This document shows, piece by piece, positions 36,499 through 51,665 of a stretch of 64,000 bases of DNA. Position 1 is the stretch's first letter. The number at the start of each line of letters is the position of its first letter. The notes under the pieces were generated by a model. The model was not told the DNA's origin. It saw nothing but the letters and a program-made list of their open reading frames with translations, and did not search any database. Where the stretch lies: positions 3,199 to 67,198 of the forward strand of contig CAYTTB010000006.1 in assembly GCA_964440565.1 (NCBI GenBank), written 5' to 3'. A program made the translations under genes and the position numbers. This stretch comes from an uncultured Thermoanaerobaculia bacterium (GTDB taxonomy: Bacteria; Acidobacteriota; Thermoanaerobaculia; Thermoanaerobaculales; Sulfomarinibacteraceae).

Positions 36499-39400
36499 CA
36501 GTTCCAGTTCTCCGTCGCCGCCCGCCTGTGGTTGCCGGTGCACGCCGCCTGACAGTTCCGCTTGTTGTAGTTGTTGTACGCCGACGCCTTGGTGAACGAC
36601 TGGATCTGCATGGTGTTGAGATCACCGTTGTAGGCGTACCGGGGCGGCATCGCAGAGTCCCGGTCACCGATCAGGCGCGACATCTTGCCCCCGTGCGGGA
36701 TCACGATGTGGCAGGAGTAGCACCTGATGCTGGTCCGGTTGTGGTCCCCTTTCGAGTGCACGTTGTTCACGTTGACGTGGCAGTTGGCGCAGAAGCTCTG
36801 GTCGTACTGGTTCAGCTGCAGGTTCGGCCACGCGGTGTTGGGCCCGCGCAGCAGGAACTGCGCCGCCGAGCCGTGCGGTCCCTGGACCGCCCCAGCCGCC
36901 GTGTCGTCGTTGTCGTGGCAGTCCGAGCACATCATGGTCTGGTTGCCCGGGTTCGTATTCCACGGTGCCTTGAGCTGGGCCGCGGCCAGCGGCGTGGTGT
37001 TGGGGCCCGAGCCGGTCGTGGCCACCACCGGATGGAACGACCGGTTGTTGGGGTTGAACTCCTGCGCCACGTCGGTCTCCGGTGCGTTGGCCTGGCTCCC
37101 GTTGGCCGAGATGCCGTTCGGGGGGTTCACGCCGAAGGCGAAGGAGCTGTGGCACTTGAAGCAGATCTCGTACTCGTAGGTGGCCTCGTTCACCGGCGTG
37201 AAGTTGGACGCCGTGGTCCCCTGGAAGTTCGCCAGGCCGGCGTACGCGAAGCTCACCCCGGAGACCCCCTTGAGCGGGCTGTCCGCCGCGATCTGGTTGC
37301 GGCTGGCGGTGGCCGTGGCGCTCCAGTCGTGCCGGGTCGGCCCGGCGGCGTGCGGCGCGTGACAGTCGAGGCAGCTCACGTGGCGGCTGGCACCCGAATA
37401 GGTGCCGTCGTTGTAGCCCGCGCCCTGCTCGGCCACGGTGTCGTGCACGGTGTCGGCCTCCACCGGGTGGGCGACCGTCTTGGCCATCACCGTGGCCAGG
37501 TCCTTCCCCGAGAGGTCCTGGCCCTTCGTCCCGTTGCCGTGGCAGTTGTAGCAGATGAAGTCGGCGGGGGTGCCGGCTGGGTTGATGGAGCCCGCGAGCA
37601 GCTTCGGGTAGTCGGAGAAGTGCACCGCACCGAGGCCGGTCCCCGAGGCATCGGGGAACCCGTCGGTGCGGTTCGCGTGGCACTTGGTGCAGTTGCGGTC
37701 GAACGTCGAGCCGTCGTGGAGGGTGTACGTCCAGGTCCCGTACGCGTTGGCGGTGTAGTTGTGGGCCGAGGCGGCAAAGGTCGCCGCGTCGATCGCCGGC
37801 CGCCCGGTGGCCACCGCGTTGCGGTGGCACGAGACGCACATCCCGCCGCTTCCCGCTCCGGCGTCGAAGTCGGTCCTGGCCGGCGACCCGGCGGTCACGA
37901 GCCCGCCGCTGTCCCGGGCAACGGAACGGCTCGCCGCCGTCGAGGCGTCGGTGTGGACGTCGTACTCGTGGGTCGTGGAGCCCGGCGTGTTGTGGACGTG
38001 GTCGGTGTGGCACATGTTGACGCACGAGCGGTCCGCGGGAGCCACCGTGTCGAGCGGCGCGGTCCAGCTCACGCCGGAGTCCTGGAACGAGTCGTTCACC
38101 TCCCGGACGTTGCCCAGCGCGTGCCGGCTGGTCTTGGGCACGGCCCCCGTCATCCCCTCCCAGATGGTGGCGTGACACACGGAGCAGTCGGCGCGGCCCT
38201 TGCTCTCGCCGGCGGCGAACCCGTTCGAGTGCGGGTGACAGCCCACGCAGCGGGTGGCCTGGTTGTGGGTGTGGTCCCCGCCGGAGGTGTCGTTGCGGTA
38301 GTGGTTCGTCTTGGTGTGACAGACCTCGCAGATCCCGTCGGAGTAGTCGGTCAGCGAGGCACCGAGGTAGCCGCCCGAGGCCGGGTTGGTCGCGCCGGCG
38401 CGGTCGTCCTGGCGGAACACGACCGTCTTCACCCCGCTCGAGGGCGTGCGGAGCTGCTCCCGGATCAGGTAGATGTTCGTCGTCCCGTGCGGCGTGTGGC
38501 AGGTGAGGCAGTCCACCGCCCAGGACCCGTAGTTGCCTCCGGTCCGCTGGCTGGAGTGGGTCGGGATGTTGTGGCAGTCGAGGCAGATCTGCGATCCGTG
38601 CGTCCGCCGCAGGAGGGTCCCGCCCCCCGCCGGGCGCCCGCCGGCGTTCGCCACCTTGAACCCGCGGCCCGCCCGCGCCACGTTGCCCGCGGCGTCGGTG
38701 GCCTCCACCTCCAGGCGGTGGAAGCCGCCCGCGAGCACCGTGGTGTCGAGGGTGATCTCGTACACCGTGCAGGAGGGCCCGCAGTCGTAGTTCGCGCTCG
38801 CCGTCACCGCCGTCGACCAGCTCCCGCCGTCGAGGCGCCAGCGGACCGCCGAGCCCCCGGCCAGCCCGCCCTCGTCGTACACCTGCACCTTCGCCACCTC
38901 CGTCCCGCCCACGACGGCCCCCTCCGCGGGCACCAGGAAGACGATGGTCGGGGCCGCGGTGTCGGCGCCGCAGGCGGGGGTCGTGTACGGCCCCAGCACC
39001 TCGGGGTTGGTTCCGGTGACGCCGTCGGGGTCCGTGTAGGTCACCCGCAGCCAGTACTGGGTGCCCGGCGTCAGGTTGGTGACCAGGCAGACGCGCGGCG
39101 ACGGTCCCGTCACGGCGGCGCACGCCGTGGTCCCCGGCCACGCGTTCGTGGTGTTGTACTCCACGGCCATCGAGCCGTCGCCGTCCTCGTCGCCGGTGAA
39201 GTCGCCCGTCACGGTGATCTGCCGGCACGCCGACACCACGGCCGAGTTGGCGACGATGGTGGTGTCGTTCACGGTGCAGGCGGGAGTGGTGACCGGCCCC
39301 ACCACCTGCGGGTTGGTCCCGCTGACACCGTCGGGGTCGGCGAAGGTCACGCGGTAGTAGTACGTCGTCCCCTCGGTCAGGCCCGTATCCACGCAGACGC

Positions 39401-40994
39401 GCGGCGAGGGCCCGGTGACCCCGGAGCACACCGCCGTCCACGGGCCCGTCGCCGAGGCCCCGCGCTCGAAGGTGGTGCTCCCGTCCCCGTCGCTGTCCCC
39501 GTCGAACGGGGCCTGCACCGTGATCTGGCTGCACGAGTCGGCGGCAGCGGTCGCCGTGCCCACGGTGGTGCCGGGGACGGGCGCAGTCGGCGTGTGCGGC
39601 CCCGTCTCGCTCCCCACGGAGTAGTTCCCGCAGCCGTCGCGTGAGAAGATCTTGTAGTAATACCCGACACCGTTGACGAGACCCGTGTCGGTGAAGCTCG
39701 CGCCCGCGCCGACGTAGACCACCGTCGCGGTGCCGATGGTCTGCCCCGCGGTGTAGGTGGTCCCCTCCGCCGGCGCGACCCCTATCGAGACCGTGTCGCG
39801 GAGGATGAGGACATCGGCGAAGTCGGCGTCCCCCGGGTTGGTCCACGAGAGCGAGACCTGGCCGTCGCCCGGGGTCACCGTGCCCCACGTGGCGTCTCCC
39901 GGCGACAGGTTGTCCACGGTGATCGTCCCGTCCGTCGTGTCGTTGTACCGGACGGTGTTCGCGAGCGCATGGGCGATCCCGGTGACGGACGCGGTCACGG
40001 CGTACGCAGCGCCGGGCGGCGCGGGCATCGCCGCGTGTGTCCTGGGCACGACGTAGATCCGGTACGGGGTCGGGGTCCCGCTGGGCGCACTGAGCGACAG
40101 ACCGCTCACCGTCCACTGGTCGCCGCTCGGCGTCGTGGTGCTGCCGAGCACCGTGGTGCCGCTGCCGTCCCGGACCTGGACCTCGCCCACGCCCGCCGAC
40201 GTGCCGGCGGCGAGGGTCACGGTCACGGCACTGATCGTGTCCGCCGAACCCGCCGTGACCGAGAGATCGAACCCGTCCGCGAAGAGCGCTCCGTCACCGG
40301 GGCACGCCGAGGCGGAGGGCGCCTTCGCCGTGCCGTCGCCCACCACCGTCTCGGGCGTCACCGGCGTCGGGAAGCGGACCCACGCGTTGGCGCTCTCCAC
40401 CTCGAACTGGAACGCGTAGTCGCCGTTGTTGTCGTAGTTCACCCAGTACTCGATGACGAGGTAGTCGTTCGGCCCGAAGGTGTAGGAGGTCGTCTGGGTG
40501 GACAGGATGTTCTCGGAGTAGGTGCCGGTGCCCGTCGCGAAGTTGAACGTCCCGGAGACGGAGAACAGCAGCGTCCCGGACGTTCCCGTGCTGGCCCGGA
40601 ACACCCGCGCCTGGACGGTGGCGGTTCCTCCGGCCTGGTACTGGGTGACCCGGATCTGCCAGTTGAACGCCCAGTCCCCGGCGGGGATGACCCCATCGAT
40701 CGGGCTGGCACTCGCCCATCCGTACTGCGGGTTGGCACCCTGGGTGTCGGAGCCCAGGTGGTCCTGCCCCGGGTAGAAGAGGTAGGTGGTGCCGGGCCCC
40801 TGAGCCGGTGCCGCCACGAACAGCCCGGTCGTGAGGTCGGCGTTGTTGCCGGCGGTGGCGCTCATCTGCCAGTACTTCGTCCCGAAGGCGTGCTGGCTGT
40901 TTCGCAGGTAGAGCGTCGTCTGCGCGCCGGCGATGCTCGCCGTGCCGAGCAGGAGCAGCGCGAGCGCGATCCCGTGCGAGCCGCGGCGGATCAT
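36498..40994 (-). CDS. giant exported FN3/Ig-domain multiheme c-type cytochrome (13 CXXCH + 1 CX3CH)
   Basis: 1498 aa from ATG 40994 (ATGA overlap with the upstream stop). Signal peptide MIRRGSHGIALALLLLGTASIAGAQ. About 780 N-terminal residues are heme-free beta-rich modules (FN3-like, Ig-like). The C-terminal ~700 aa carry CLDCH, CLTCH, CEVCH, CVGCH, CSVCH, CVNMCH (CX3CH), CVSCH, CTKCH, CYNCH, CLDCH, CFKCH, CSDCH, CANCH and CYSCH. Confidence 0.9.
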   Translation of the reverse strand: MIRRGSHGIALALLLLGTASIAGAQTTLYLRNSQHAFGTKYWQMSATAGNNADLTTGLFVAAPAQGPGTTYLFYPGQDHLGSDTQGANPQYGWASASPIDGVIPAGDWAFNWQIRVTQYQAGGTATVQARVFRASTGTSGTLLFSVSGTFNFATGTGTYSENILSTQTTSYTFGPNDYLVIEYWVNYDNNGDYAFQFEVESANAWVRFPTPVTPETVVGDGTAKAPSASACPGDGALFADGFDLSVTAGSADTISAVTVTLAAGTSAGVGEVQVRDGSGTTVLGSTTTPSGDQWTVSGLSLSAPSGTPTPYRIYVVPRTHAAMPAPPGAAYAVTASVTGIAHALANTVRYNDTTDGTITVDNLSPGDATWGTVTPGDGQVSLSWTNPGDADFADVLILRDTVSIGVAPAEGTTYTAGQTIGTATVVYVGAGASFTDTGLVNGVGYYYKIFSRDGCGNYSVGSETGPHTPTAPVPGTTVGTATAAADSCSQITVQAPFDGDSDGDGSTTFERGASATGPWTAVCSGVTGPSPRVCVDTGLTEGTTYYYRVTFADPDGVSGTNPQVVGPVTTPACTVNDTTIVANSAVVSACRQITVTGDFTGDEDGDGSMAVEYNTTNAWPGTTACAAVTGPSPRVCLVTNLTPGTQYWLRVTYTDPDGVTGTNPEVLGPYTTPACGADTAAPTIVFLVPAEGAVVGGTEVAKVQVYDEGGLAGGSAVRWRLDGGSWSTAVTASANYDCGPSCTVYEITLDTTVLAGGFHRLEVEATDAAGNVARAGRGFKVANAGGRPAGGGTLLRRTHGSQICLDCHNIPTHSSQRTGGNYGSWAVDCLTCHTPHGTTNIYLIREQLRTPSSGVKTVVFRQDDRAGATNPASGGYLGASLTDYSDGICEVCHTKTNHYRNDTSGGDHTHNQATRCVGCHPHSNGFAAGESKGRADCSVCHATIWEGMTGAVPKTSRHALGNVREVNDSFQDSGVSWTAPLDTVAPADRSCVNMCHTDHVHNTPGSTTHEYDVHTDASTAASRSVARDSGGLVTAGSPARTDFDAGAGSGGMCVSCHRNAVATGRPAIDAATFAASAHNYTANAYGTWTYTLHDGSTFDRNCTKCHANRTDGFPDASGTGLGAVHFSDYPKLLAGSINPAGTPADFICYNCHGNGTKGQDLSGKDLATVMAKTVAHPVEADTVHDTVAEQGAGYNDGTYSGASRHVSCLDCHAPHAAGPTRHDWSATATASRNQIAADSPLKGVSGVSFAYAGLANFQGTTASNFTPVNEATYEYEICFKCHSSFAFGVNPPNGISANGSQANAPETDVAQEFNPNNRSFHPVVATTGSGPNTTPLAAAQLKAPWNTNPGNQTMMCSDCHDNDDTAAGAVQGPHGSAAQFLLRGPNTAWPNLQLNQYDQSFCANCHVNVNNVHSKGDHNRTSIRCYSCHIVIPHGGKMSRLIGDRDSAMPPRYAYNGDLNTMQIQSFTKASAYNNYNKRNCQAACTGNHRRAATENWN
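38970..39569 (-). repeat. tandem ~100-aa FN3-like module duplication inside the giant cytochrome
   Basis: Two adjacent units (39276..39569 and 38970..39275). Each carries an acidic DG(D/E)GS motif (DGDSDGDGS / GDEDGDGS). Both then share the block TGPSPRVC(V/L)..(G)LT.GT.Y..RVT(F/Y).DPDGV(S/T)GTNP.V.GP.TTPAC. Confidence 0.6.
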
Positions 40995-42013
40995 GGGCCG
41001 TCCTCCGTCTGCGTGTTGCCGTCCGCGTAGTGGACCCCGTGGCAGCTCAGGCACTGCACCCGGCCCGCGGCATCGAGGAGGTAGTCGTCACTCGCGATGC
41101 CGTCGCCCCCCGCCCCCTGGACGGAGCCGTCGCCGTCGAGCGGCGCCGTGCGATCCCACCCGTGGCCGTTGCTGCCCAGCGCCACCCCCACCGGGTGGCT
41201 CTTCACCGACCCGTCGTAGGTCTCCACCGCCGTGTGATCCATGGCCCACGCGCGGTGGCAGTCGCGGCAGAACCGGCTCCCCGCGGTGTTGTCCCCGGTG
41301 TCCAGCGGCACCCTCAGGAACGGGTAGGATGCCGTGAACCGCCACCGCTCGCCCACCGCGTAGGTGCCGGAGCCGAAGGTGATCGTGACCCCGCTGTCGA
41401 GCGCGATCGGGGTGCCGATGGTGATGCTCCTGTCGGGGAACCAGGTGGCGCCCTCGTCCTTGGAGTACTTGAAGCTCGAGTCCGCCACCGTGATCTCGAT
41501 CAGGTACGAGACACCGGACGCCCCGGTGTACGATCCACCCGCGGTCACGGTGCCGGTGCTTCCCAGGGAGGTCAGCCTGGCGACGGCACTGATCCTCGCG
41601 CGGCCTCCGTTCGCCGCCGAGGCCGCGTGCTGGTTGTGGCAGGTGGAGCACACGATGGAGCCCCCGTACACCCGCAGCGCCATCTCCTGGTTGGCCGGGA
41701 GCTGGGTGCCGACCGTCGGGTTGACCGCCGCCACCCCGTAGGCGTGGGAGATCCCGCTCTGCCCCAGCACGGCCATGTCGCCCGAGTTGATGGGCAGCGC
41801 GGAGGCGGTCCCCGTGGGGTTGTGGCACGACTGGCAGAGGTTCACGTTGCCGGCCACCGACGTGAGCGTCACCCCGGGGGCCGAGTGTCCCGTGTGGCAC
41901 GAGTCGCAGTCCATCCCCGCGCCCCAGTGGGGCGGATCCACGGCGGCCGCCGGTACCGAGACCGCGAGCGCCACGATCCCGACCCACACGCCTCGCCGTG
42001 CATGCGCCATCAT
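40991..42013 (-). CDS. pentaheme c-type cytochrome with a central non-heme beta domain
   Basis: 340 aa from ATG 42013 (MMAHARRGVWVGIVALAVSVPAAA signal). CXXCH motifs: CDSCH, CQSCH, CSTCH, CRDCH, CLSCH. A ~110-aa heme-free insert lies between hemes 3 and 4. The upstream part of track ORF 40991..42268 is junk. Confidence 0.85.
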   Translation of the reverse strand: MMAHARRGVWVGIVALAVSVPAAAVDPPHWGAGMDCDSCHTGHSAPGVTLTSVAGNVNLCQSCHNPTGTASALPINSGDMAVLGQSGISHAYGVAAVNPTVGTQLPANQEMALRVYGGSIVCSTCHNQHAASAANGGRARISAVARLTSLGSTGTVTAGGSYTGASGVSYLIEITVADSSFKYSKDEGATWFPDRSITIGTPIALDSGVTITFGSGTYAVGERWRFTASYPFLRVPLDTGDNTAGSRFCRDCHRAWAMDHTAVETYDGSVKSHPVGVALGSNGHGWDRTAPLDGDGSVQGAGGDGIASDDYLLDAAGRVQCLSCHGVHYADGNTQTEDGP

Positions 42014-42015: not shown

Positions 42016-44619
42016 TCACACCCCCCGTCTCGAGAGCACCGCCACGCCCGCGGCGGCGATCAGCAGCACGAGCAGCGCCCTCCCCGCCGGGCCCTGGACG
42101 GGTATGCCCGTGGCGGTGACGCCCGTCCCCTCGACGTACGCCACGTCCGGGCTCGACGGGGCGTCGCTTCTCACCTCGAGCACGGCGGTCCTGGTCCCCT
42201 CGGCGGTGGGCGCGAAGACGATCCTGAGCTCGCACGACCCACCCGGATCGAGCGTCCGGCCCGTGCACCCGTCCGCCGCCACGTCGAAGTCAGCGGGCTC
42301 GCGGCCGGAGAACGTGACCGCGCCGAGGTTCACCGCCGCTCCACCCACGTTCGAGACCGTCAGCACCCGCTCGAGCGACCTCCCGCCCACGGGCACGGCC
42401 CCGAAGACCACGACGCTCGCCGACAGGTCCAGGGAGGGACCCGCGATCACGCCCCGTCCGGCGAGAGCCACGGACACCGAGCCGGCCGGGGCGGCGAGGG
42501 CGATGCGGAGCGACCCCGCCCAACGGCCCGTCCCCTCCGGCCGGAAGCTCACGGACACCGAGCACACGCCGCCCGCCGGCACCGTACCGCCGCAGGTGGA
42601 GCCCACCACCCGGAACGGGGCCGCTGTCGCGACCTCCGACACCGCGAGCGGCCCCGCGCCGACGTTCCGGAGGTTCACCACCAGCGGAGCGCTCTCCACG
42701 CCCACCTCCTGGGGCCCGAAGTCCAGCGCCTCGGGCAGGGCCAGCGGCTGCCCGGCCCCCACCGCGGCGCCGTACCCCTCGAGCGCCACCGTCTGGGGCG
42801 TTCCCGGGGCGTCGGTGCGGAACGCCAGGGTCCCCTCCCGGGCGCCCGGCACCGCCGGCACGAACGTCACCGCGACCGTGCAGCTCTCGCCGGGGGCGAG
42901 CTCCCACGGGCAGGTGCCCGACACACGGAAGTCGCCCGTGGCCTCGACCCCGAAGAGGGCGAGCGGCGCCGACCCGGCGTTGGTGAGCGTGACCTCGCGC
43001 GGCCCGCCCACGGCCCCCACCGCGACGCTGCCGAAGGCGACCGCCGTCGGGTTCACGGCAGCGGCGGGAGCCGCGAGCTGGGTGTCCGAGAGGCGGAACA
43101 CCTCGAGCCGCCCGGTGTTCGCCGAGGCCACCACCAGCCGGCCCACGTCCTCCGCCACGGCAGCGTCGGTGGGCGTCTTCAGCTCGCCCAGCTCGTCACC
43201 GTACGTGCCCAGGATGTCGCGGAGCTGCCCGTCGAGGGTGAAGCTCTGCACCCGGTCCTGGAATGCATCCGCAGCGAACACCAGCCCGCCCGCGCTCGCC
43301 ACCGCTCCCTCGAGCTGGCCGAACTCGCCGGGCCCGCCCCCGAGGCCGCCGAACGACCCCAGGTACGTCCCGGTGCCGTCGTACCGGCGCACCACGCCGG
43401 CCACCGTGTCGGCCACGGCGAAACCACCTCCCGGAAGACCCTCGACGTCACGGGCCCCGAGGAGCTCGCCCGGCCCGCTTCCGTAGCCGCCGAAGCCGAA
43501 CAGCGCCTTCCCGGCCTCGTCGAACACCACGACCCGCCCACGGTCCCCGTAGAGCACCGCGTACCGGCGGCCCGTCCGGTCCACCGCCACGGCCAGCGGC
43601 GACACCGACCCGTCGCCCGGGTCCAGGTCACGCACCGGCCGCCCGAGCCGGTTCACCACCCTCGCCCCCGACGGGGTCGCCAGCACCAGGTTGCCGTCCC
43701 AGTCCACCTCGAGGTCGTGGACCGGCCCGAGCGGGAGAAAGGTCACGACCTCGCCCGAGGCGAGCCCCACCACCGCCACCCCCTCGAGCCCGTCGTCGGC
43801 GACGTACACCAGGCCGCCGGGCCCCGCCGCCACCCGGTGGGGCGCCACCAGCCCCGCGCTGATGAACTTCTCGGGCACGGCGTCGGTCACCGCCACGCCG
43901 ACCGTGGCGGTCGCGATCCCTCCGTTGCCGTCATCGGCGGTGCAGGTGACGGTCACGATCCCAGGGGTGGCCGGGGCCGAGAGCTCCGCGGTGAACGACC
44001 CGGTGGGGGTGATCGTCCCCGCATCGGCCGTCCACGTGAGCGTGACCGGGTCGCCGTCCGGGTCCGACACGGTCGCCGTGATCACGCTTGTCCCGCCGGG
44101 CAGCACCGCCTGCGGATCCGCCACCAGCGCGTCGAACACCGGGGGCTGGTTGCCGCCGGTGGTCACCTGGATCTGGAGGGTGGCGGTGGCGGTCTGCCGC
44201 CCGCCGCAGAGGAAGGTGCCGCTGTCGGCGATGTCCACCGTGATGGTGTAGCTCCCCTCGACGGCCGGCGCCTGCCAGGTGGCGGTGGTGGTGTACGGAG
44301 AGGCGGAGACACCGGGGTCGATGGCGGTGAACGTTCCGCCCGAGGCCGACCACGATGTGAGGTCGGCCCGGATGTACAGTCCACATCCGCTCGTACACGT
44401 GCCGGTGCAGTCGGGGTCGTGGGCGTCCAGCACCAGCGACACCGTGCCACCGGGAGCCACGGACGGCGGGCTCGCGGTGAACGCGTCCACCACCGGCGCC
44501 GCCGCGCGCGCCACCCCCGGGGCGGCGAGCAGCGGGGCCACGATCCCGGCGGCCAGGACGGCGCGCGGGATTCTCCCCAACTCGACCGGCGGAATGCGAA
44601 AAATTCCGCGCTTCGCCAT
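42016..44619 (-). CDS. exported multidomain surface protein: Ig/PKD-like domains + NHL-type propeller + three ASH/choice-of-anchor-D-like beta-sandwich repeats + C-terminal hydrophobic anchor
   Basis: 867 aa from ATG 44619; the 5' 503 codons of track ORF 42016..46128 are antisense to the kinase gene. Signal peptide present. Ig-like modules (TATVSDPDGDPVTLTWTA). NHL-like blades (GSGPGELLGARDV, GGGPGEFGQLEGAV, DRVQSFTLDG). Three repeats of the type FG.V.VG......L.N.G...L........F......C.....PG.SC...V.F.P. The tail reads IPVQGPAGRALLVLLIAAAGVAVLSRRGV. Confidence 0.8.
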   Translation of the reverse strand: MAKRGIFRIPPVELGRIPRAVLAAGIVAPLLAAPGVARAAAPVVDAFTASPPSVAPGGTVSLVLDAHDPDCTGTCTSGCGLYIRADLTSWSASGGTFTAIDPGVSASPYTTTATWQAPAVEGSYTITVDIADSGTFLCGGRQTATATLQIQVTTGGNQPPVFDALVADPQAVLPGGTSVITATVSDPDGDPVTLTWTADAGTITPTGSFTAELSAPATPGIVTVTCTADDGNGGIATATVGVAVTDAVPEKFISAGLVAPHRVAAGPGGLVYVADDGLEGVAVVGLASGEVVTFLPLGPVHDLEVDWDGNLVLATPSGARVVNRLGRPVRDLDPGDGSVSPLAVAVDRTGRRYAVLYGDRGRVVVFDEAGKALFGFGGYGSGPGELLGARDVEGLPGGGFAVADTVAGVVRRYDGTGTYLGSFGGLGGGPGEFGQLEGAVASAGGLVFAADAFQDRVQSFTLDGQLRDILGTYGDELGELKTPTDAAVAEDVGRLVVASANTGRLEVFRLSDTQLAAPAAAVNPTAVAFGSVAVGAVGGPREVTLTNAGSAPLALFGVEATGDFRVSGTCPWELAPGESCTVAVTFVPAVPGAREGTLAFRTDAPGTPQTVALEGYGAAVGAGQPLALPEALDFGPQEVGVESAPLVVNLRNVGAGPLAVSEVATAAPFRVVGSTCGGTVPAGGVCSVSVSFRPEGTGRWAGSLRIALAAPAGSVSVALAGRGVIAGPSLDLSASVVVFGAVPVGGRSLERVLTVSNVGGAAVNLGAVTFSGREPADFDVAADGCTGRTLDPGGSCELRIVFAPTAEGTRTAVLEVRSDAPSSPDVAYVEGTGVTATGIPVQGPAGRALLVLLIAAAGVAVLSRRGV

Positions 44620-44645
44620 CGGCAGGCCTCCCCCCTCCCGGTCCG

Positions 44646-44661
44646 TGCAACCAGGATGCCA
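44646..44661 (-). promoter_or_regulatory. sigma-54 (-24/-12) promoter of the 12.6-kb minus-strand cytochrome operon
   Basis: The minus strand reads TGGCATCCTGGTTGCA (TGGCAT-N5-TTGCA). It is followed by CGGACCGGGAGGGGGGAGGCCTGCCG and ATG 44619, so the promoter, RBS and start codon are all in register. Confidence 0.75.
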
Positions 44662-44721
44662 GAGCGCGCGCCCCGGCGCCACCCCTCCGCAGCGGGCGTA
44701 CAATCGTCCTCCGGAGGGGGC

Positions 44722-46191
44722 GTGGAGAGAAGCCAACCCAGCACCGGCCGCGCATGGCGGCTTCCGTGGCCGCCGCGGACCGTGTTCGTCGTGATCCCCC
44801 TCCACCTGGTGGCGTTCCTGTTGCTCTACCTCGGCGTGGTCCAGCTCGCGCTGAACCAGGTGACGGTGGCCCACGAGCAGGACATCAAGGTGATGATCCG
44901 GACGGTGGTCGAGGAGCTCCACCCCGCCATGGTGTGCGGCGACGCAGAGAAGGTCCGTGAGCGGCTCGCCCAGTACGTCGCGGCGCACCGGCTGCTGGCT
45001 CTGGAGCTGTACGACCGCCGGGGGCGCCCCCTGGGGCCCACGGCGCGGCAGGACCCCGAGGTGCGGGCGTTCCTCATGGCTCCGGAGCACGAGTCGTACC
45101 GGGTGATCCGCGCCGCGGGCTCGTCGGTGCAGCTCGCCCTGATGCGGATCACGGCGGAGGAGCGGTGCGCGCCCTGCCACACCCCCGGCGAGCCGCTCGG
45201 GGTGGCCTCCGTCGCCCGCGACCTGCGACACGAGCTCGCCGAGACGAAGCGCCGCCTCCGGGTGCACGCGGGGCTCCTCACCGGCGGCTGGATCCTCCTC
45301 GTGGGTCTCCTGAACCTCGTGCTGTCGCGGGCCGCCCGGCGGACCGTGCGGTCGCTCGCCGCCGGCGGCGAGGATGCCAGGCCCTCGCTGGCCATGGACC
45401 CCGTGGCCCTGGAACTCTACCGCTCGCTGCGCGCTACGCTCCGGGCCCGGCGCGAGGAGCGGCGGCGGATGGACGACCACCTCCAGCGCACCGACCGTCT
45501 CGCCACCGTCGGCACCATCGCCGCCGGGATCGCGCACGAGATCAAGAACCCGCTGGCCGGCGTCCAGGGGGCGCTCGAGCTGCTCGTGGAGGAGTGCCAG
45601 GACCACGACCGGCGCGACCTGTTCGAGCGAATGCTGGAGGAGATCCGGCGGGTACAGCGGACCGTGCAGTCGTTGCTCGCCTTCGCGCGGCCCCGGCCCG
45701 TCCAGCCCCGCGTGGCGGACCTCGGCGCCCTGCTGGCCGACGTCGCCGCCCTGCTCGAGCCCGCCTGCCGGCGGCAGGGGATCGAGCTCCGGACCCGCGT
45801 CGCGGCGGGCACCGGAAGCTTCGTGCTGGATCCCGAGCAGATCCGGCAGGTGCTGGTCAACCTGGTCACCAACGCGATGGAGGCCACCGGCCGCGGTGGC
45901 ACCGTCGAGCTGTCGGCGGCGCCGCTCCCGGAAGGTGACGGGGTCGTGCTGGCGGTGCAGGACGACGGCCCGGGAGTCGCCCCGGAGGTGGCCGGACGGC
46001 TGTTCGAGCCGTTCGTGACGACGAAGCTGCACGGCACGGGGCTCGGTCTCGCCGTGGCGCAGCGGATCGTGGAGGAGCACGGGGGCGAGATTCAGGTGGA
46101 GAGCACGCCGGGCCGGACCATCTTCCACATCGTCCTGCCGGCCCGGAGGGGAGGGGAAACGGATGCCGCTGATCCTGATCGTCGAGGATGA
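44722..46191 (+). CDS. sensor histidine kinase (NtrB-like) with a CXXCH heme-c motif in the extracytoplasmic sensor domain
   Basis: In the frame of ORF 41998..46191. TM1 is VFVVIPLHLVAFLLLYLGVV. The ~130-aa loop contains ERCAPCH (45166..45180). TM2 is LLTGGWILLVGLLNLVL. H-box GIAHEIKNPL, N-box VLVNLVTNAME, G-boxes DDGPGV and GTGLGL. Start is uncertain (GTG 44722 after GGAGGGGG; alternatives ATG 44656 and GTG 44782). Confidence 0.85.
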   Translation: MERSQPSTGRAWRLPWPPRTVFVVIPLHLVAFLLLYLGVVQLALNQVTVAHEQDIKVMIRTVVEELHPAMVCGDAEKVRERLAQYVAAHRLLALELYDRRGRPLGPTARQDPEVRAFLMAPEHESYRVIRAAGSSVQLALMRITAEERCAPCHTPGEPLGVASVARDLRHELAETKRRLRVHAGLLTGGWILLVGLLNLVLSRAARRTVRSLAAGGEDARPSLAMDPVALELYRSLRATLRARREERRRMDDHLQRTDRLATVGTIAAGIAHEIKNPLAGVQGALELLVEECQDHDRRDLFERMLEEIRRVQRTVQSLLAFARPRPVQPRVADLGALLADVAALLEPACRRQGIELRTRVAAGTGSFVLDPEQIRQVLVNLVTNAMEATGRGGTVELSAAPLPEGDGVVLAVQDDGPGVAPEVAGRLFEPFVTTKLHGTGLGLAVAQRIVEEHGGEIQVESTPGRTIFHIVLPARRGGETDAADPDRRG

Positions 46192-47524
46192 GGACCTGCT
46201 GCGCTGGTCGCTCCAGCGGCGGCTCGAGAAGGCGGGGCACGAGGTCCACCTCGCGGCGGACCTCGCCGAGGCCGAACGCCACCTGGAGCAGCACCAGCCC
46301 GACCTCCTCCTCCTCGACCTCGCCCTCCCCGACGGTCACGGGCTCGACTTCTTCGAGCGCAACCGGGAGAAGCTGGCGCCCACCGTGGTGATCGTCATGA
46401 CCGCCGTCGGCGAGGTCGAGGACGCGGTCCGGGCGATGAAGCTGGGCGCGCTCGACTTCCTCACCAAGCCCGTGGACCACGACGACCTTCTCGACCTCGT
46501 GCACCGGTCGCTCGAGCGCCGCCAGGAGCAGCTCGACGCGGAGGCGGCGCGGCGCGACCGGCAGCTCCTGATCAGCTCCGACATCGTGGCCCACTCCGAG
46601 GCGTTCCGGCGCACGCTGGCCATCGCGTGCGAGGTGGCCCGGTCGGAGATCGCCACGGTGCTGATCACCGGGGAGAGCGGGACCGGGAAGAACGTCGTGG
46701 CGAGGTACATGCACGCGGTGTCCTCGCGGGCCGAGCGTCCGCTCCTCGAGGTCAACTGTGCGACGCTGCCCGACCAGCTCGTGGAGAGCGAGCTGTTCGG
46801 TCACGAGCGCGGCGCGTTCACCGACGCCAAGACGCTCAAGCGGGGCACCCTGGAGCTCGCCGACGGCGGGACCGTGGTCCTCGACGAGATCGGGGAGCTG
46901 CGGCTGGACGTGCAGGCCAAGCTGCTCCAGTTCCTCGAGAACCGGAGGTTCCGCCGGGTCGGGGGCGTGCGCGAGATCCAGGTGGACACGCGGGTGTTCG
47001 CCCTCACCAACCGCGACCTCACGGCGATGGTGGCCTCGGGCGAGTTCCGCAAGGATCTCTACTACCGGCTCTCGGTCTTCCCCATCGTGGTTCCGCCCCT
47101 TCGCGACCGGCGCGAGGACATCCTCCCGCTCGCGCGTCATTTCCTCCACACCCTCCAGCCGAAGGTGGGACGGCGCTTCGACGGCTTCAGCCGCGAGGCG
47201 GAGAACCGCCTCCTCGCCCACGACTGGCCGGGCAACGTCCGGGAGCTCCGCAACGTCGTGGAGCGGGCCGTGATCCTCGCGCAGGGCCCCACGGTGGGCC
47301 CCGAGTCGCTGGTGCTCGACGTCCGGATGGCGGGCTCCGCGGTGGACGAGTCGTCCGCGGTCCGCGGGATCATCCCCCTGGCCGAGGCGGAGCGCCAGCT
47401 GGTGGAGCGCGCGATGGAGGCCGCCGGAGGCAACCAGACGCGGGCCGCGGAGCTGCTCGGCATCACGCGCGACCAGCTCCGCTACCGGCTCCAGAAGCTC
47501 GGGCTGCTTCCCCGCCGCAAGTGA
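46163..47524 (+). CDS. sigma-54-dependent response regulator (NtrC family bacterial enhancer-binding protein)
   Basis: REC domain (LIVEDE...DLLLLDLALPDG). AAA+ domain with GESGTGKNVVARYMH, the sigma-54 contact loop ESELFGHERGAFTDA and VRELRNVVERA. C-terminal Fis-type HTH RAAELLGITRDQLRYRLQKLG. Confidence 0.92.
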   Translation: MPLILIVEDEDLLRWSLQRRLEKAGHEVHLAADLAEAERHLEQHQPDLLLLDLALPDGHGLDFFERNREKLAPTVVIVMTAVGEVEDAVRAMKLGALDFLTKPVDHDDLLDLVHRSLERRQEQLDAEAARRDRQLLISSDIVAHSEAFRRTLAIACEVARSEIATVLITGESGTGKNVVARYMHAVSSRAERPLLEVNCATLPDQLVESELFGHERGAFTDAKTLKRGTLELADGGTVVLDEIGELRLDVQAKLLQFLENRRFRRVGGVREIQVDTRVFALTNRDLTAMVASGEFRKDLYYRLSVFPIVVPPLRDRREDILPLARHFLHTLQPKVGRRFDGFSREAENRLLAHDWPGNVRELRNVVERAVILAQGPTVGPESLVLDVRMAGSAVDESSAVRGIIPLAEAERQLVERAMEAAGGNQTRAAELLGITRDQLRYRLQKLGLLPRRK

Positions 47525-47526
47525 TC

Positions 47527-47542
47527 CGGCACGCAACTTGCA
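47527..47542 (+). promoter_or_regulatory. sigma-54 (-24/-12) promoter of the pseudo-receiver / 21-heme cytochrome / NHL operon
   Basis: CGGCACGCAACTTGCA matches TGGCACG-N4-TTGCA at every position but the first. It lies 3 nt after the regulator stop and 22 nt before GTG 47564, which has GAAGGAG as its RBS. Confidence 0.65.
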
Positions 47543-47563: not shown

Positions 47564-47983
47564 GTGACGCGGATGCGGCTGATGCTGATGGAGGCGTCGC
47601 CAGTCACCGGCTGGCTGATCCGCCGGCTTCTCCCGCCGGACGTGGAGCTGGTGCAGGTCTCGGATCCCGAGGAGGCCGAGAGGGTGCTGCGCGAGGAGCC
47701 CCTCGACGGCGCCGTCTTCGGGCTCACCACGGCGAGCCTCCCGTGGTCGCGGCTGCGCGACCTGTGCGAGCGCCGGGTCCCCCGGATCCCGCACATGTGG
47801 TATTACTCCCTGTGCGAGGTCCCGGGCGACGGCGAGCTCTCGCCGGAGGCCGCGCCCGAGCTTCCTCCGGTTCTCCTCGAGGAGCTCGAGGAGCGGCTCG
47901 CACGGTTCCTTGCCCGGATCGGGGCGGGCCGCACGGAGCGTCCGGTGCGCGCCAACCCCGGGGAACGGAGGGTACGAGAGTGA
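47564..47983 (+). CDS. small cytoplasmic protein, possibly a degenerate receiver (pseudo-REC) domain
   Basis: 139 aa with very high GC3 throughout. Its RBS sits directly after a sigma-54 promoter. The RLMLMEASPV...VELVQVSDPEEAERVLREEPLDGAVFGL pattern resembles REC beta1-alpha1-beta2-alpha2-beta3, but with Gly where the phospho-acceptor Asp is expected (by-eye alignment). Confidence 0.5.
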   Translation: MTRMRLMLMEASPVTGWLIRRLLPPDVELVQVSDPEEAERVLREEPLDGAVFGLTTASLPWSRLRDLCERRVPRIPHMWYYSLCEVPGDGELSPEAAPELPPVLLEELEERLARFLARIGAGRTERPVRANPGERRVRE

Positions 47984-49689
47984 GGCGTGCGATGCTGCTG
48001 CTGGCGCTGGCCCCGGCCGTGGCGATGGCGGCGCGACACCCGCGGCTGGTCTCGGTGGAGAACACCCGCTGCACCACCTGCCATGCGGAGAAGACGCGCG
48101 GCACGACCGTGCATCCACCCGCGGCCGAGGACTGCACCACGTGCCATGAGATGACCATCGCCCCCTCCGGCACCACCGTGGCGCTGGCCGAGGAGGAGCC
48201 GGCGCTGTGCGTGGGCTGCCACGACGACAAGGCCGCCGCCGCGGAAGGCGAGCTGCCCTCCCCCCACGCCCCGGTCACGGACTCCTGCCTCGACTGCCAC
48301 GACCCGCACGCCACCGACACTCCACATCTCATCACCGCCGACTCGGTACCCGAGCTGTGCACCGGCTGCCACGATCCCGGCGACCTCGAGGGTCCGCACG
48401 GAGGCGTCCTGCCGAGGAACGCCCGGTGCACCGCCTGCCACCTGCCGCACGGCGGACCCAACCCGAAGCTGCTCCGCGCCGCCGGTCAGCACCCGCCGTT
48501 CGCGGAGGGCTCGTGCGACGCGTGCCACCGCAAGCCGCTCGGCCCGCGGATGCGGCTGCGCGGCCGGATCGGCCGGATCTGCTCCTCCTGCCACGGCGAC
48601 CTCACCGAGGGGAGCACGGTCACCCACCCGGCACTGGACCGGCGGCGCAATCGGCGCCAGTGCGTGGCCTGCCACGACCCTCACATGAGCGACGTGGAGC
48701 CGCTGCTGCGCGCCGAGGGACCGGCTCTCTGCGCGAGCTGTCACCCCGGTGAGGCGAAGGCGGCGACGGGGGACGGCGGTCACGCGCCCGCCGCCGAGGC
48801 GTGCACCACGTGCCACCAGCCGCACGCCGCGGCGCGCCGGTACCTCCTCGACGACGCGCCGCCCGAGCTGTGCCTGGGCTGCCACGACGCCGACGACCTG
48901 CGCGCGCCCCATCTCGGGGCCGATCCGGAGTCGCTCACGTGCACCGACTGCCACACCCCGCACGGCTCCGACAACCCGAAGCTCCTCGCCGCGAACCTCC
49001 ACCCTCCGCTGCTCGACGGGTGCGACACCTGCCACGAGGGGGCGTACGACCGTCTCGAGGCCGACGGCGGCTCCGAGCTGTGCCTGGCCTGCCACGACGA
49101 CATCGGCGAGGCGGCGGCGGCGGCCAAGGTCCCGCACCCGGCGATGGAGCTGGCACGGTGCGCCGACTGCCACAACCCGCACGCCTCGCCGCAGGAGCAC
49201 CTGGTGAAGGAGCCCGCGGGTGGCGAATGCCTCGCCTGTCACGACGACATGGGGCCCCGGGAGGGGGAGACCGCGCACGGGGTCATCACGCTGATCGGCT
49301 GCCGCGCATGTCACGAGCCCCACGGCGGACAGCGGCCCAGGCTGCTCCGGGCGGAGGGCGACGCCCTGTGCCTCGCCTGCCACGACGCGAGCCACGCCCC
49401 GGCGCGCGGCAGCTCGCAGCCGGTCACCGTGCTGGGGCGGTTCGAGGTACCGGCGCACGCCGCGCGGCGGATGGCGGTGGTCGAGCTCACCGACGGGAAG
49501 GGGCACCCCGTCAGCGGCCACCGCGCCGTGGGTCCACCCACCCGGCAGGAGGTGGAGCGGGCCGAGACGACCTTCACCGGCACGCTGGGCTGCCTCACCT
49601 GCCACGACCCGCACCGGGGACGGTACAGGCTGCTGCGCTGGGACGCGGAGTCCCCGTTCGCGGCGTGCTCCCACTGCCACCCGAAGTGA
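47980..49689 (+). CDS. 21-heme c-type cytochrome (modular, c7/doubled-CXXCH-like repeats)
   Basis: 569 aa from GTG 47980, which lies 7 nt after GGAGGG and overlaps the upstream stop. Signal VRRAMLLLALAPAVAMA. 21 CXXCH motifs counted, arranged in repeating H-P-P...C..CH / C..CHD / C..CH.PHG..NPKLL units. Confidence 0.9.
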   Translation: MRRAMLLLALAPAVAMAARHPRLVSVENTRCTTCHAEKTRGTTVHPPAAEDCTTCHEMTIAPSGTTVALAEEEPALCVGCHDDKAAAAEGELPSPHAPVTDSCLDCHDPHATDTPHLITADSVPELCTGCHDPGDLEGPHGGVLPRNARCTACHLPHGGPNPKLLRAAGQHPPFAEGSCDACHRKPLGPRMRLRGRIGRICSSCHGDLTEGSTVTHPALDRRRNRRQCVACHDPHMSDVEPLLRAEGPALCASCHPGEAKAATGDGGHAPAAEACTTCHQPHAAARRYLLDDAPPELCLGCHDADDLRAPHLGADPESLTCTDCHTPHGSDNPKLLAANLHPPLLDGCDTCHEGAYDRLEADGGSELCLACHDDIGEAAAAAKVPHPAMELARCADCHNPHASPQEHLVKEPAGGECLACHDDMGPREGETAHGVITLIGCRACHEPHGGQRPRLLRAEGDALCLACHDASHAPARGSSQPVTVLGRFEVPAHAARRMAVVELTDGKGHPVSGHRAVGPPTRQEVERAETTFTGTLGCLTCHDPHRGRYRLLRWDAESPFAACSHCHPK

Positions 49690-49705: not shown

Positions 49706-50746
49706 ATGCGACATCTGACCTGGCGTGTCCTCGCCGCAGCCCTCACGCTCTGGCTCGCCGGCTGCGCCTCCACCGGCCGGCGCCCCGTCCAGGACCCGTA
49801 CGCCGAGTACGTCTGGCCGCCGCCCCCCGACCCGCCCCGGATCCGCCTCGAGACGATCCTCACGGGCCGCGCCGACGTCGAGGCCGAGTCGGGATGGCGG
49901 AAGGCGCTGATCGGGGCCGGCCCGAAGAACCCGTACGACCGGCTCCGCAAGCCGTTCGGCGTGGCGTTCGACGGTCAGGGCCGGATCCTCGTCACCGACA
50001 CCGCGCTCCACGCGCTGGTGCGGTTCGACCGGGAGGGCCACCGCTACGACGTGTTCGGCACCCGCGGGCCCGCCCGGCTCCGCCTGCCGCTGGGTCTCGA
50101 CGTGGCCCCCGACGGGACCGTCTTCGTGGCCGACGCCGGGCGTGCCCAGGTGGTGGCCTACACCGCCGAGGGGAAGCTCGTCGCCCTCTACGGACAGCCC
50201 GGAGAGCTCGTGAACCCCACCGACGTGGCGGTGTCGCCCGACGGCACCCGCCTGTACGTCGCGGATTCCAAGGCGCACCGGATCGTCGTCTACGGCCGCG
50301 CCGACGGGCACCGGGAGGGGGCCTTCGGACGCCGCGGCGAGGGCCCGGGCGAGTTCGCCTTTCCCACCTCGCTCGCCTTCACCCCCGACGGCGACCTCCT
50401 GGTGGTGGACCAGCTCAACTCCAGGGTGCAGCTGCTCACCGACGAGGGCGAGTACCTCGACGAGTTCGGCGGGCTCGGGACCGGCTTCGGGAACTTCGTG
50501 CGCCCCAAGGACGTGGCCGTGGACCGGGAGGGGATCATCTACGTCACCGACGCGGCCTTCAACAACGTCCAGCTGTTCGACTCGGACTTCGAGCTGCTCA
50601 CCTTCGTCGGCGAGGGCGGCGCCGGGCCGGGGCAGTTCCGCATCGCCGCCGGCGTCGCGGCCCACGGCGACCGGTTCGCGGTGGTGGACCAGCTCAACCG
50701 GCGGGTGCAGGTCTTCCGCTACCTCCAGCCCCGCGGTGGGGAATAA
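49706..50746 (+). CDS. NHL-repeat beta-propeller lipoprotein
   Basis: Lipobox LTLWLAGC. Six NHL-like blades, for example FGVAFDGQGRILVTDTALHALVRFD, PLGLDVAPDGTVFVADAGRAQVVAY, PTDVAVSPDGTRLYVADSKAHRIVVY, GPGEFAFPTSLAFTPDGDLLVVDQLNSRVQLL, PKDVAVDREGIIYVTDAAFNNVQLF. Confidence 0.85.
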   Translation: MRHLTWRVLAAALTLWLAGCASTGRRPVQDPYAEYVWPPPPDPPRIRLETILTGRADVEAESGWRKALIGAGPKNPYDRLRKPFGVAFDGQGRILVTDTALHALVRFDREGHRYDVFGTRGPARLRLPLGLDVAPDGTVFVADAGRAQVVAYTAEGKLVALYGQPGELVNPTDVAVSPDGTRLYVADSKAHRIVVYGRADGHREGAFGRRGEGPGEFAFPTSLAFTPDGDLLVVDQLNSRVQLLTDEGEYLDEFGGLGTGFGNFVRPKDVAVDREGIIYVTDAAFNNVQLFDSDFELLTFVGEGGAGPGQFRIAAGVAAHGDRFAVVDQLNRRVQVFRYLQPRGGE

Positions 50747-50943: not shown

Positions 50944-50959
50944 TGGCACGCGCCTTGCA
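50944..50959 (+). promoter_or_regulatory. sigma-54 (-24/-12) promoter of the tetraheme cytochrome / PPIase / barrel / NHL / cytochrome operon
   Basis: TGGCACGCGCCTTGCA is a perfect match to TGGCACG-N4-TTGCA. It lies 59 nt before ATG 51018, with GGGAGGG as the RBS. Confidence 0.8.
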
Positions 50960-51017: not shown

Positions 51018-51665
51018 ATGAAGCGCATCGCAACTGTCACCCTGGCGGTCCTGGCCGCCGCGAGCCTGGCCGGGGCGGGCGTGGTCGGGTCCAAGCACGA
51101 CCTCAGCTCCACCGGCCCGGGGGCCACGACCAACGTGAACCGGGTGTGCGTGTTCTGCCACACCCCGCACCAGAGCGGGACCAACGTGGACCCGCTGTGG
51201 AACCACACCCTGTCCACCGTCACGAGCTACGGCGTGTACTCGTCGTCGACGCTGAACGCCACCCCCACCGACATCGGCGGCGGGAGCGCGGTGTCGAACC
51301 TCTGCATGTCGTGCCACGACGGCACGGTGGCGGTCCACTCGCTCTACAACGAGCCGAACGAGGTGGGCACCATCACCCTCACCTCGGGCGGCAACGTGGA
51401 CAGCAACGGGTTCATGACCGGCACCCCGAACCTGGGCACCGACCTCACCAACGACCACCCGATCAACTTCACCTACGACACCGCGCTGGCCAACGCCGAC
51501 GGCGAGCTGGTGGATCCGGCGACGAACAGCACGGTGGCCGGCCTGCTGTTCAGCGGCACGGTGCAGTGCGCGTCCTGCCACGACCCGCACGACGACACCA
51601 ACGCGCCGTTCCTCGTGATGAGCAACACCAACAGCGCTCTCTGCACCACCTGTCACATCAAGTGA
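51018..51665 (+). CDS. small tetraheme c-type cytochrome (paralog family)
   Basis: 215 aa. Signal MKRIATVTLAVLAAASLAGAG. CXXCH motifs: CVFCH, CMSCH, CASCH, CTTCH. Family motifs: GSKHDLS, VCVFCHTPH, PLWNH, LCMSCHDGT, GTDLTNDHPI, and the C-terminal NSALCTTCHIK. Confidence 0.88.
   Translation: MKRIATVTLAVLAAASLAGAGVVGSKHDLSSTGPGATTNVNRVCVFCHTPHQSGTNVDPLWNHTLSTVTSYGVYSSSTLNATPTDIGGGSAVSNLCMSCHDGTVAVHSLYNEPNEVGTITLTSGGNVDSNGFMTGTPNLGTDLTNDHPINFTYDTALANADGELVDPATNSTVAGLLFSGTVQCASCHDPHDDTNAPFLVMSNTNSALCTTCHIK

Follow-up and report, generated by a model that had tools for sequence, protein, structure and literature searches.

A Candidate Heme-c Sensor Kinase and NtrC-Type Activator within a Multiheme Cytochrome Cluster of a Thermoanaerobaculia Bacterium

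We analyzed a stretch of 64,000 nucleotides (hereafter the window) from an uncultured Thermoanaerobaculia bacterium of the phylum Acidobacteriota (assembly GCA_964440565.1, contig CAYTTB010000006.1, positions 3,199 to 67,198), and found that the gene at 44722..46191 encodes a sensor histidine kinase whose periplasmic loop, as judged from sequence, profile, and fold, is a homologue of the heme-c sensor domains in GSU0582 and GSU0935 of Geobacter. The gene overlaps that of an NtrC-type sigma-54 activator and stands within an island of multiheme cytochrome genes. We consider it probable (about 0.65) that this heme-c Cache/PAS-like sensor kinase acts through the NtrC-type activator on sigma-54-dependent cytochrome units, the likeliest input being the redox state of the periplasm or of the cytochrome pool.

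The CXXCH Motif and the Sensor Domain

The full-length kinase was used as the query in a database search, and a single CXXCH was found at the aligned position in all of the 120 homologues listed (36–54% identity, >80% coverage). The middle residues of the motif were free (AP, EP, KP, SS, TA, QE, VE, and others), while C149, C152, and H153 were the sole invariant columns of the sensor domain in an alignment of 129 sequences. Thus, selection appears to act on a heme-c attachment site and not on the local sequence; by chance, 0.0015 CXXCH motifs would be expected in a protein of the kinase's composition. An initial annotation of this DNA had reported the motif as ERCAPCH at 45166..45180. These positions are exact for CAPCH (aa 149-153), ERCAPCH would begin at 45160, and the conservation among orthologous kinases on which that annotation had made its heme assignment depend was complete (120/120 homologues listed and 129/129 aligned sequences). 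A word-index homology search with the N-terminal 233 aa of the kinase alone gave no match, and an exhaustive search of representative sequences returned just 24 sensor-domain relatives at E<=1e-3, which indicates that single-sequence sensitivity is low for this domain.

The relationship of the loop to solved structures was nevertheless evident at several levels. Residues 62-156 of the kinase matched PF21563 (Mcp40H-20_sensor) above its cut-off of 27 bits, scoring 29.7 with the whole protein as the query and 31.3 with the loop. Among the PDB sequences, phmmer found 3b47 (E=3.2e-5) and 3b42 (E=4.8e-3) as the only significant relatives of the loop, and both the CXXCH and an upstream M-x-x-G-D segment were aligned. 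A profile built from 27 sensor domains of the kinase's clade (alignment A2) matched 3b47 over nearly its full length (E=1.6e-13) and 3b42 at E=1.5e-8, and 15 of these 27 members matched PF21563 individually. An AlphaFold2 model of aa 39-188, computed from the 129 sequences, had a mean pLDDT of 87.9 and a pTM of 0.79. It opens with a long N-terminal helix and two more helices, continues with a strand, another helix, and a pair of long strands, and ends, after a short helical turn and one last strand, in a C-terminal helix that runs into the second transmembrane (TM) segment. Strands 96-106 and 120-129 flank the helical turn, which is 3 residues long (109-111), and the CXXCH (model residues 111-115) overlaps this turn. 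When the model was compared with the PDB by Foldseek, the top three matches were 3b42_A and 3b42_B (GSU0935) and 3b47 (GSU0582), each with a probability of 1.00 over 125-131 columns, followed by PAS, Cache, and CHASE4 sensor domains. The initial annotation had only likened the loop to GSU0582 and GSU0935; the PF21563 match, the clade profile, and the Foldseek ranking make this likeness a true homology.

The sCache_heme family, which was described in a 2026 preprint (PMC12889525), unites the DUF3365/Tll0287-like family PF11845 with GSU0582/0935 and comprises ~20,000 members, 99% of them with CXXCH and some of them fused to kinases. The family fold is a Cache-type module in which the CXXCH-bearing helix is inserted between two strands (PMC12889525), and the predicted fold of the kinase loop agrees with this description. 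The kinase shares the Cache-type fold, the CXXCH helix between strands, and the strict CXXCH, and its HisKA/HATPase_c fusion is one of the listed architectures; every feature of the sCache_heme/PF21563 family that can be checked in silico was found in it. Membership of the loop in PF11845 itself (Tll0287-like / DUF3365) was rejected, the query having no match at E<=1; 2 of the 27 clade members matched that family weakly (best E=7.6e-4), and by its sequence the loop appears related to PF11845 at the superfamily level only. Matches to the CHASE8 and CusS-sensor Pfam families (E=3e-3 to 0.07, under the cut-off) spanned the N-terminal helix only and were deemed non-specific.

Predicted Heme Ligands and Heme Attachment

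According to the PDB entry descriptions, 3b42 is GSU0935 and 3b47 is GSU0582, and the published numbering (PMC8396549) is obtained by adding 34 to the chain index. With this offset, the aligned histidine corresponds to His143/His144 and chain Met26 to Met60. The GSU0582 and GSU0935 domains bind heme covalently, undergo a redox-linked switch from high spin to low spin that was attributed to Met60, and bind NO and CO reversibly; in the low-spin form, Met60 is a ligand of the heme, from which NO or CO displaces it (PMC8396549). Because M70 of the kinase aligns with Met60, His153/Met70 ligation of the heme is predicted. M70 was kept in 43 of the 44 closest homologues listed, within the pattern (L/I)-H-P-x-M-V, and the remaining one (P0033) has Val. 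His89 was conserved at 78% among the homologues listed and has no counterpart in the Geobacter domains. Another residue without a counterpart there (A or K) is Cys72 (44935-44937), the lone Cys of the periplasmic loop outside the CXXCH, two residues past Met70. Of the 12 nearest homologues, 10 kept an M-x-C arrangement (M-V/S/L-C) at M70/C72, and a few other homologues had M-C-S. As in Tll0287, a thiolate, here that of Cys72, could alternatively ligate the heme.

ResB and CcsA form the System II machinery of cytochrome c maturation, which acts on the periplasmic side. Genes for both are encoded ~8 kb from the kinase in the window, and a ResB-CcsA fusion gene is the divergent neighbor of the kinase in two more distant genomic contexts.

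The Kinase Gene and Its Topology

Exactly two hydrophobic segments, aa 20-44 and aa 184-202, were found in the kinase (Kyte-Doolittle), and the loop between them is 139 aa long (aa 45-183, nt 44854-45270). The 19 residues before TM1 carry charges of +4/-1, as do the 15 residues after TM2. Considering that the ATP-dependent kinase core must be cytoplasmic, the loop is extracytoplasmic (periplasmic), as predicted from hydropathy, charge, and the position of this core. Two TM helices bracketing a loop of ~130 aa had been recognized in the initial annotation, for which a cytoplasmic CXXCH would have been fatal; hydropathy and charge place the CXXCH loop in the periplasm. Four residues within the TM segments were conserved above nearly all columns of the sensor domain, namely H28 (95%), F32 (95%), P26 (86%), and W190 (100%) (44797-44817, 45289-45291). 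The conserved His lies within TM1, near the cytoplasmic face.

From its domains the protein is predicted to be a class I (HisKA) transmembrane sensor histidine kinase, and its H-box columns were at least 90% conserved in the 129-sequence alignment. We rejected orthology with AtoS or ZraS; the NCBIfam similarity was confined to the kinase core and lay far under the cut-offs.

The window has a G+C content of 74.3%, so that long spurious open reading frames (ORFs) occur everywhere, and the kinase frame itself is open from 41998. The start at GTG 44722 is favored because 67 of the 120 homologues listed begin with Met at the aligned column; a GGAGG lies 4 nt 5' of this GTG, the stop is at 46189-46191, and 102 bp separate the kinase start from the start of the divergent gene (44619). 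No sigma-70 promoter or terminator was found in a strict scan of 44300-48100. A TACAAT at 44699-44704, 17 nt 5' of the GTG, may be the -10 box of a promoter of the kinase's own, and GGTACAAT also occurs upstream of the kinase in L001, the closest of the other genomes described below.

The Activator and the Sigma-54 Elements

The activator gene begins with ATG at 46163, 29 nt before the kinase stop, and its product contains REC, Sigma54_activat, AAA_lid_14, and HTH_8 domains (Sigma54_activat E=2e-62, Response_reg E=2e-27, HTH_8 E=6e-15). This agrees with the initial annotation, in which a HisKA/HATPase kinase overlapped the start of an NtrC-type regulator. We compared the window with seven other genomic contexts of homologues (kinase identity 39-54%). 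A REC-sigma54-HTH_8 activator directly followed the kinase in all eight contexts, and D52 and the GAFTDA loop (position 217) were present in 8/8 activators. The sigma-54 contact loop (aa 217-222, 46811-46828) thus reads GAFTDA, and not the canonical GAFTGA, in all eight activators examined.

The whole window was scanned for -24/-12 elements (TGGCAC-N5-TTGC with at most 1 mismatch). Six sites were found, compared with 2.2 expected, and 1 of 100 shuffles reached this number. Three of the elements stand at units of the cytochrome cluster (table 1). The first precedes the divergent operon, with a GGGAGGGGGGAGG ribosome-binding stretch between the element (44661-44647) and the ATG; counterparts of the elements were found in L001 at 9910-9896 (divergent operon) and 16220, and in L003 at 12860 and 16557. 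The element before the 4-heme cytochrome gene was hence conserved in three loci (the window, L001 at 16220, and L003 at 16557). The gap after the activator stop was scanned separately, requiring an exact GG-N10-GC and agreement with no fewer than 8 of 10 consensus bases, and an element was present in all 7 loci that have this gap, against a chance of 1-5% each (from the background density in the same sequences). These seven loci are related, so the trials are not fully independent; however, non-coding DNA should not stay alignable at such protein divergence. The small ORF after this element ends at 47983 and the 21-heme cytochrome gene starts at 47992 on the same strand. With a spacing of 8 nt, a promoter after the activator stop should also drive the 21-heme cytochrome. 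The conserved and correctly placed -24/-12 elements, as predicted promoters, support a relay to sigma-54 promoters across the island, which the initial annotation had postulated; they occur at three units of the cluster, and their positions recur in orthologous loci.

Searches for the binding site of the activator gave candidates of varied merit. Palindromes upstream of the five putative promoters of the window had no shared motif. A perfect inverted repeat, GCGGAAT-N7-ATTCCGC (44590-44608), coincides with the first codons of the gene that starts the divergent operon, and a related copy (TGCGGAAT-AC-TCCGCA, 29964-29975) is found 64-75 nt 5' of a sigma-54-like site at 30039. Since the window contained just this related copy and the seven other loci contained none, we rejected the repeat as an upstream activating sequence (UAS). 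A candidate activator binding site lies ~175-190 nt 5' of the -24 element of the putative 4-heme cytochrome promoter, where the window (50769-50782, GCGCGA-TT-TCGCGC) and L001 (~16031-16050, GTGCGT-N8-ACGCAC) each have a GC-rich inverted repeat that surrounds a conserved ATTTC.

Gene Order in Related Genomes

The closest genome, an uncultured Thermoanaerobaculia metagenome-assembled genome (L001/L002), shares 54% kinase identity. The whole arrangement of the window was repeated in L001/L002 and in L003, at 47-54% kinase identity. On one side, these loci contain the Ig-like/ASH protein, a small cytochrome, and the giant cytochrome; on the other side, the kinase, the activator, the small ORF, a ~580-aa cytochrome, an NHL protein, a small cytochrome, and PpiC, followed by an uncharacterized protein of 592 aa, another NHL protein, and one more cytochrome. 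The initial annotation had placed the kinase divergent from a giant-cytochrome operon, and the minus-strand genes for the Ig-like, 5-CXXCH, and 13-CXXCH proteins were found accordingly. This divergent operon was also retained in L085, and the neighborhoods of L086 and L088 include other multiheme cytochromes, NHL proteins, or genes of the MtrB/MtrC-like type. Overall, cytochromes or ResB-CcsA were present in 7/8 contexts.

An ORF of 125-156 aa came next after the activator in 6 of the 7 other contexts. In the window, this small ORF (47564-47983) had no Pfam match even at E<=10. Its orthologues (~130 aa) are found in L001 (12806-13198), L003 (12899-13285), L086 (10991-11386), L087 (11120-11590), and L088 (10999-11388), and the alignment has a receiver-like pattern (MRxLxxD...PDAAVVGL...IPVLxYYS, plus FLxKP in distant members) in which Gly or Ser stands in place of the phospho-acceptor Asp. 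The equivalent slot of L004 is occupied by a genuine REC (Response_reg) protein. Because of this pattern and the true REC in L004, we read the small ORF as receiver-like, and it may be a pseudo-receiver feedback component.

Table 1. Positions of the kinase, its parts, and the neighboring genes and elements in the window.
Feature	Position	Strand	Basis and remarks
CcsA-type heme handling protein, Trp-rich WGRYWGWDP motif	33943..34803	-	Pfam PF01578 E=1e-32; motif in translation
ResB-like protein (System II cytochrome c maturation)	35260..36543	-	Pfam PF05140
Giant cytochrome, 1498 aa, 13 CXXCH	36498..40994	-	Divergent operon
5-CXXCH cytochrome c	40991..42013	-	Divergent operon
Secreted protein, Ig-like + ASH + Big_9 domains, first gene of divergent operon	42016..44619	-	Pfam; syntenic in L001, L003, L085
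Putative sigma-54 -24/-12 element TGGCAT-N5-TTGCA	44647..44661	-	GC 28 nt before ATG (44619) of divergent operon
Sensor histidine kinase coding sequence	44722..46191	+	489 aa, GTG start; homologue starts at aligned column
TM1, aa 20-44, with P26-x-H28...F32 pattern	44779..44853	+	Hydropathy; H28, F32 95% conserved
Periplasmic sensor domain, aa 45-183, PF21563 / sCache_heme (PAS-like, PDC) type	44854..45270	+	Pfam, PDB sequence matches, AlphaFold, Foldseek
Met70 codon, predicted distal (sixth) heme ligand	44929..44931	+	Aligns with Met60 of GSU0582/GSU0935, pairwise and in profile
CAPCH heme-c attachment motif (C149, C152; H153 proximal ligand, predicted)	45166..45180	+	Invariant in homologues; aligned with CQSCH of 3b47, 3b42
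TM2, aa 184-202, with invariant W190	45271..45327	+	Hydropathy, homologue alignment
HisKA (DHp), aa 265-324; phospho-acceptor H272 (45535-45537) in AHEIKNPL	45514..45693	+	Pfam E=1.3e-15
HATPase_c, aa 370-475	45829..46146	+	Pfam E=7.3e-27
NtrC-type sigma-54 activator (REC with D52, AAA+ with GAFTDA at 217, HTH_8)	46163..47524	+	Pfam; start overlaps kinase end by 29 nt
Putative sigma-54 -24/-12 element CGGCAC-N5-TTGCA	47527..47541	+	In 40-nt gap after activator stop
Small ORF, 139 aa, receiver-like without phospho-acceptor Asp	47564..47983	+	Orthologues 32-48% identical
Multiheme cytochrome, 565 aa, 21 CXXCH	47992..49689	+	Paired_CXXCH_1 E=2e-88
NHL-repeat beta-propeller protein	49706..50746	+	
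Putative sigma-54 -24/-12 element TGGCAC-N5-TTGCA, perfect	50944..50958	+	60 nt before 4-heme cytochrome gene
4-heme cytochrome c	51018..51665	+	

Proposed Mechanism and Alternative Explanations

We hypothesized that, after Sec export of the loop, ResB and CcsA would attach heme to C149 and C152, with H153 as the proximal ligand by homology. By extension from the Geobacter proteins, Met70 would bind the reduced heme iron and leave it on oxidation, or when displaced by NO or CO. The switch of ligand and spin state would shift the N-terminal helices that continue from TM1, and the movement would pass through TM1, TM2, and a ~60-residue linker without HAMP to the DHp domain, where it would set the autophosphorylation of H272. 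The phosphoryl group would then pass from H272 to D52 of the activator, as is general in two-component systems and as the gene overlap and the 8/8 synteny support; the activator gene is probably translationally coupled to the kinase gene. The activator would open the sigma-54 promoters of three units, in line with the conserved -24/-12 elements: (i) the divergent operon of the Ig-like protein with the 5-heme and 13-heme cytochromes, (ii) the operon of the small receiver-like ORF, the 21-heme cytochrome, and the NHL protein, and (iii) the group of the 4-heme cytochrome and PpiC. A redox input would couple cytochrome expression to the availability of electron acceptors. It is conceivable, if clearly unlikely, that kinase, activator, and pseudo-receiver form a dedicated switch that tunes a Thermoanaerobaculia conduit for extracellular electron transfer (EET) to the periplasmic potential, and that the heme of this sub-clade undergoes a redox-linked ligand switch between Cys72 (ferric thiolate) and Met70 (ferrous thioether).

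Redox state is favored as the signal because of the conserved cytochrome context and the precedent of BccR (GSU0598), a REC-sigma54-HTH activator that is divergent from a sigma-54 cytochrome operon and is induced as the potential falls (bioRxiv 10.1101/2021.04.15.440034). The same protein and circuit might instead perceive a diatomic gas (NO, CO, or O2) at the heme and adjust the cytochromes under nitrosative or oxic stress, which we hold to be rather unlikely. Such a role would suit GSU0582 and GSU0935, which bind NO whether oxidized or reduced, and CO in the reduced state, with displacement of Met60 (PMC8396549), and the sCache_heme domains of Pseudomonas, which were characterized as NO-binding sensors (PMC12889525; bioRxiv 10.64898/2026.05.25.727664); DcrA also appears, in the reference list of PMC3460858, as a proposed oxygen or redox-potential sensor. 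However, the eight contexts contained multiheme cytochromes, NHL, PpiC, and maturation genes and no recognizable NO reductase, nitrite reductase, or flavohemoglobin, and gas binding and redox sensing in the sCache_heme family are not mutually exclusive. That the CXXCH carries no heme at all and serves as a metal-binding or thiol-disulfide redox motif in a cofactor-free Cache domain has a next to negligible probability: the ~20% identity to the solved heme domains would permit it, but the His after the second Cys was invariant together with both Cys in the 129 sequences, and a dithiol switch would not need this His. Moreover, there is a column-for-column match between the motif and the site of heme attachment in 3b47 and 3b42, the island also encodes ResB and CcsA, and across the family, in which CXXCH is 99% conserved, every member tested bound heme c (PMC12889525).

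A further possibility, which appears highly unlikely, is that a genuine heme-c kinase and activator do not control the adjacent cytochromes, these being chance neighbors, or that they regulate the small ORF only; the other -24/-12 matches would then serve a different activator or not be promoters. It would fit with this that only the post-activator element was present in all loci, that the element of the divergent operon was seen in the window and L001 and not in L003 at the threshold used, that L087 has no cytochrome gene within 8 kb, and that no shared activator binding motif was found. Chance proximity is nevertheless hard to reconcile with a cytochrome/NHL/PpiC cluster that is syntenic at 47-54% kinase identity and with cytochromes or ResB-CcsA in seven of the eight contexts. 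Moreover, the conserved promoter before the small ORF would transcribe the 21-heme cytochrome 8 nt downstream as well, and the putative promoter of the 4-heme cytochrome was conserved in three loci. Control of the cytochromes by a redox-responsive heme-c kinase has, for its part, several points against it. The PF21563 score was barely over the cut-off, with an identity to the solved domains of ~20%, and the Foldseek TM-scores were modest (0.39-0.51, rmsd ~15 A), for which the comparison of a monomer model with domain-swapped crystal dimers is the likely reason. The column of M70 was Met in just 55% of the 120 homologues listed, and the distal ligand may differ (H67, C72, and H89 being alternatives). 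Palindrome and half-site searches gave no UAS motif common to the promoters of the window or conserved in L001. Finally, we infer the binding of heme, its ligands and midpoint potential, and the direction in which the kinase is controlled, as well as, from domain content alone, the EET function of the cytochrome cluster.

Comparison with Known Heme-c Sensors

GSU0582 and GSU0935 (PDB 3b47 and 3b42; PF21563) share with the kinase the homologous domain, two flanking TM helices, a single CXXCH at the same position, and a distal Met. Their output is a HAMP and a methyl-accepting chemotaxis protein signaling domain, whereas that of the kinase is HisKA/HATPase; the kinase is also only ~20% identical to them, has the extra C72 two residues past the Met, and belongs to an Acidobacteriota host of 74% G+C. 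For the two Geobacter domains, midpoint potentials of about -156 and -251 mV are reported (Pokkuluri et al. 2008), and a similar value in the kinase would be suited to sensing a cytochrome pool. Heme-c sensor kinases have been described in Geobacter (PMC8396549, PMC3460858), and homologues of heme-c sensors were noted in Anaeromyxobacter (PMC3831638). In G. sulfurreducens, there are twelve heme-c signal transducers, eight of them annotated as two-component proteins (PMC8396549), and the heme-c two-component proteins of Geobacter are GSU0283, GSU0303, GSU0356, GSU0599, GSU1302, GSU2314, GSU2816, and GSU2916 (Londer et al. 2006, listed in PMC8396549). By description, they resemble the kinase in that a c-heme sensor domain in the periplasm is joined to a two-component protein, but their targets are mostly unknown, and GSU0599 has two heme motifs compared with one in the kinase.

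GSU0599 is, by locus numbering, the neighbor of BccR, and is listed as a heme-c two-component protein (PMC8396549). In the BccR/cbcBA system of G. sulfurreducens, the likeness to the present locus is one of architecture, the activators being built alike. The target of BccR is an inner-membrane bc-type quinol oxidoreductase, whereas the cytochromes found here are giant multiheme proteins, secreted or periplasmic, that have NHL and Ig-like partners, and the text of the BccR paper mentions no histidine kinase or sensor (bioRxiv 10.1101/2021.04.15.440034). The characterized sCache_heme members of Pseudomonas, unlike the kinase, are NO sensors with other outputs, and Tll0287 has His/Cys ligation, compared with the predicted His/Met of the kinase. 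DcrA of Desulfovibrio vulgaris is, by description, a transmembrane transducer with a periplasmic c-type heme domain like the kinase, but it is a chemoreceptor.

Considering that periplasmic heme-c two-component sensors have been known since the work on Geobacter of 2006-2008, the kinase is not a new kind of sensor; mildly new are the Thermoanaerobaculia-like Acidobacteriota lineage and the unusually legible regulon. To our knowledge, no regulator has yet been described for the putative EET clusters of Thermoanaerobaculia (Acidobacteriota). Multiheme-cytochrome clusters of Acidobacteriota were proposed as EET machinery in a preprint whose text contains no histidine kinases, regulators, or sigma-54 (bioRxiv 10.64898/2026.05.27.727921). 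The locus offers a concrete and conserved candidate circuit, consisting of a heme-c sensor kinase, an NtrC-type activator, and three mapped -24/-12 putative promoters. With these defined parts, the control of cytochrome production becomes addressable in vitro without a cultured host, and a kinase with a regulon readable from sequence is added to a heme-c sensor family that is mostly chemoreceptor-based.

Other Features of the Island

Several other genes of the window were observed around the cluster. A 595-aa protein (52700-54487, +) has a signal peptide and no Pfam match, is rich in R, Y, T, and G, and has a counterpart of 592-594 aa at the same place in L001, L003, and L004; it is a candidate for the outer-membrane barrel in a porin-cytochrome conduit. 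A protein with GAF and HD-GYP-type (HD_5) domains (30777-31967, -) is encoded behind a sigma-54-like element, TGGCAC-N5-CTGC, at 32036-32050 (-). In L001 and L003, the GAF-HD gene stands directly after the giant cytochrome, which hints at a cyclic di-GMP link to the cluster. Between the CcsA and GAF-HD genes, the window encodes a B12-binding radical SAM enzyme (32058-33854, -) that is absent at the equivalent place in L001 and L003. The cytochrome island is flanked at ~18200-26600 by a polysaccharide-like locus, read from translations only, with no family search run, whose predicted genes are methyltransferase-, glycosyltransferase-, flippase-, and sulfotransferase-like and include one for a large membrane protein.

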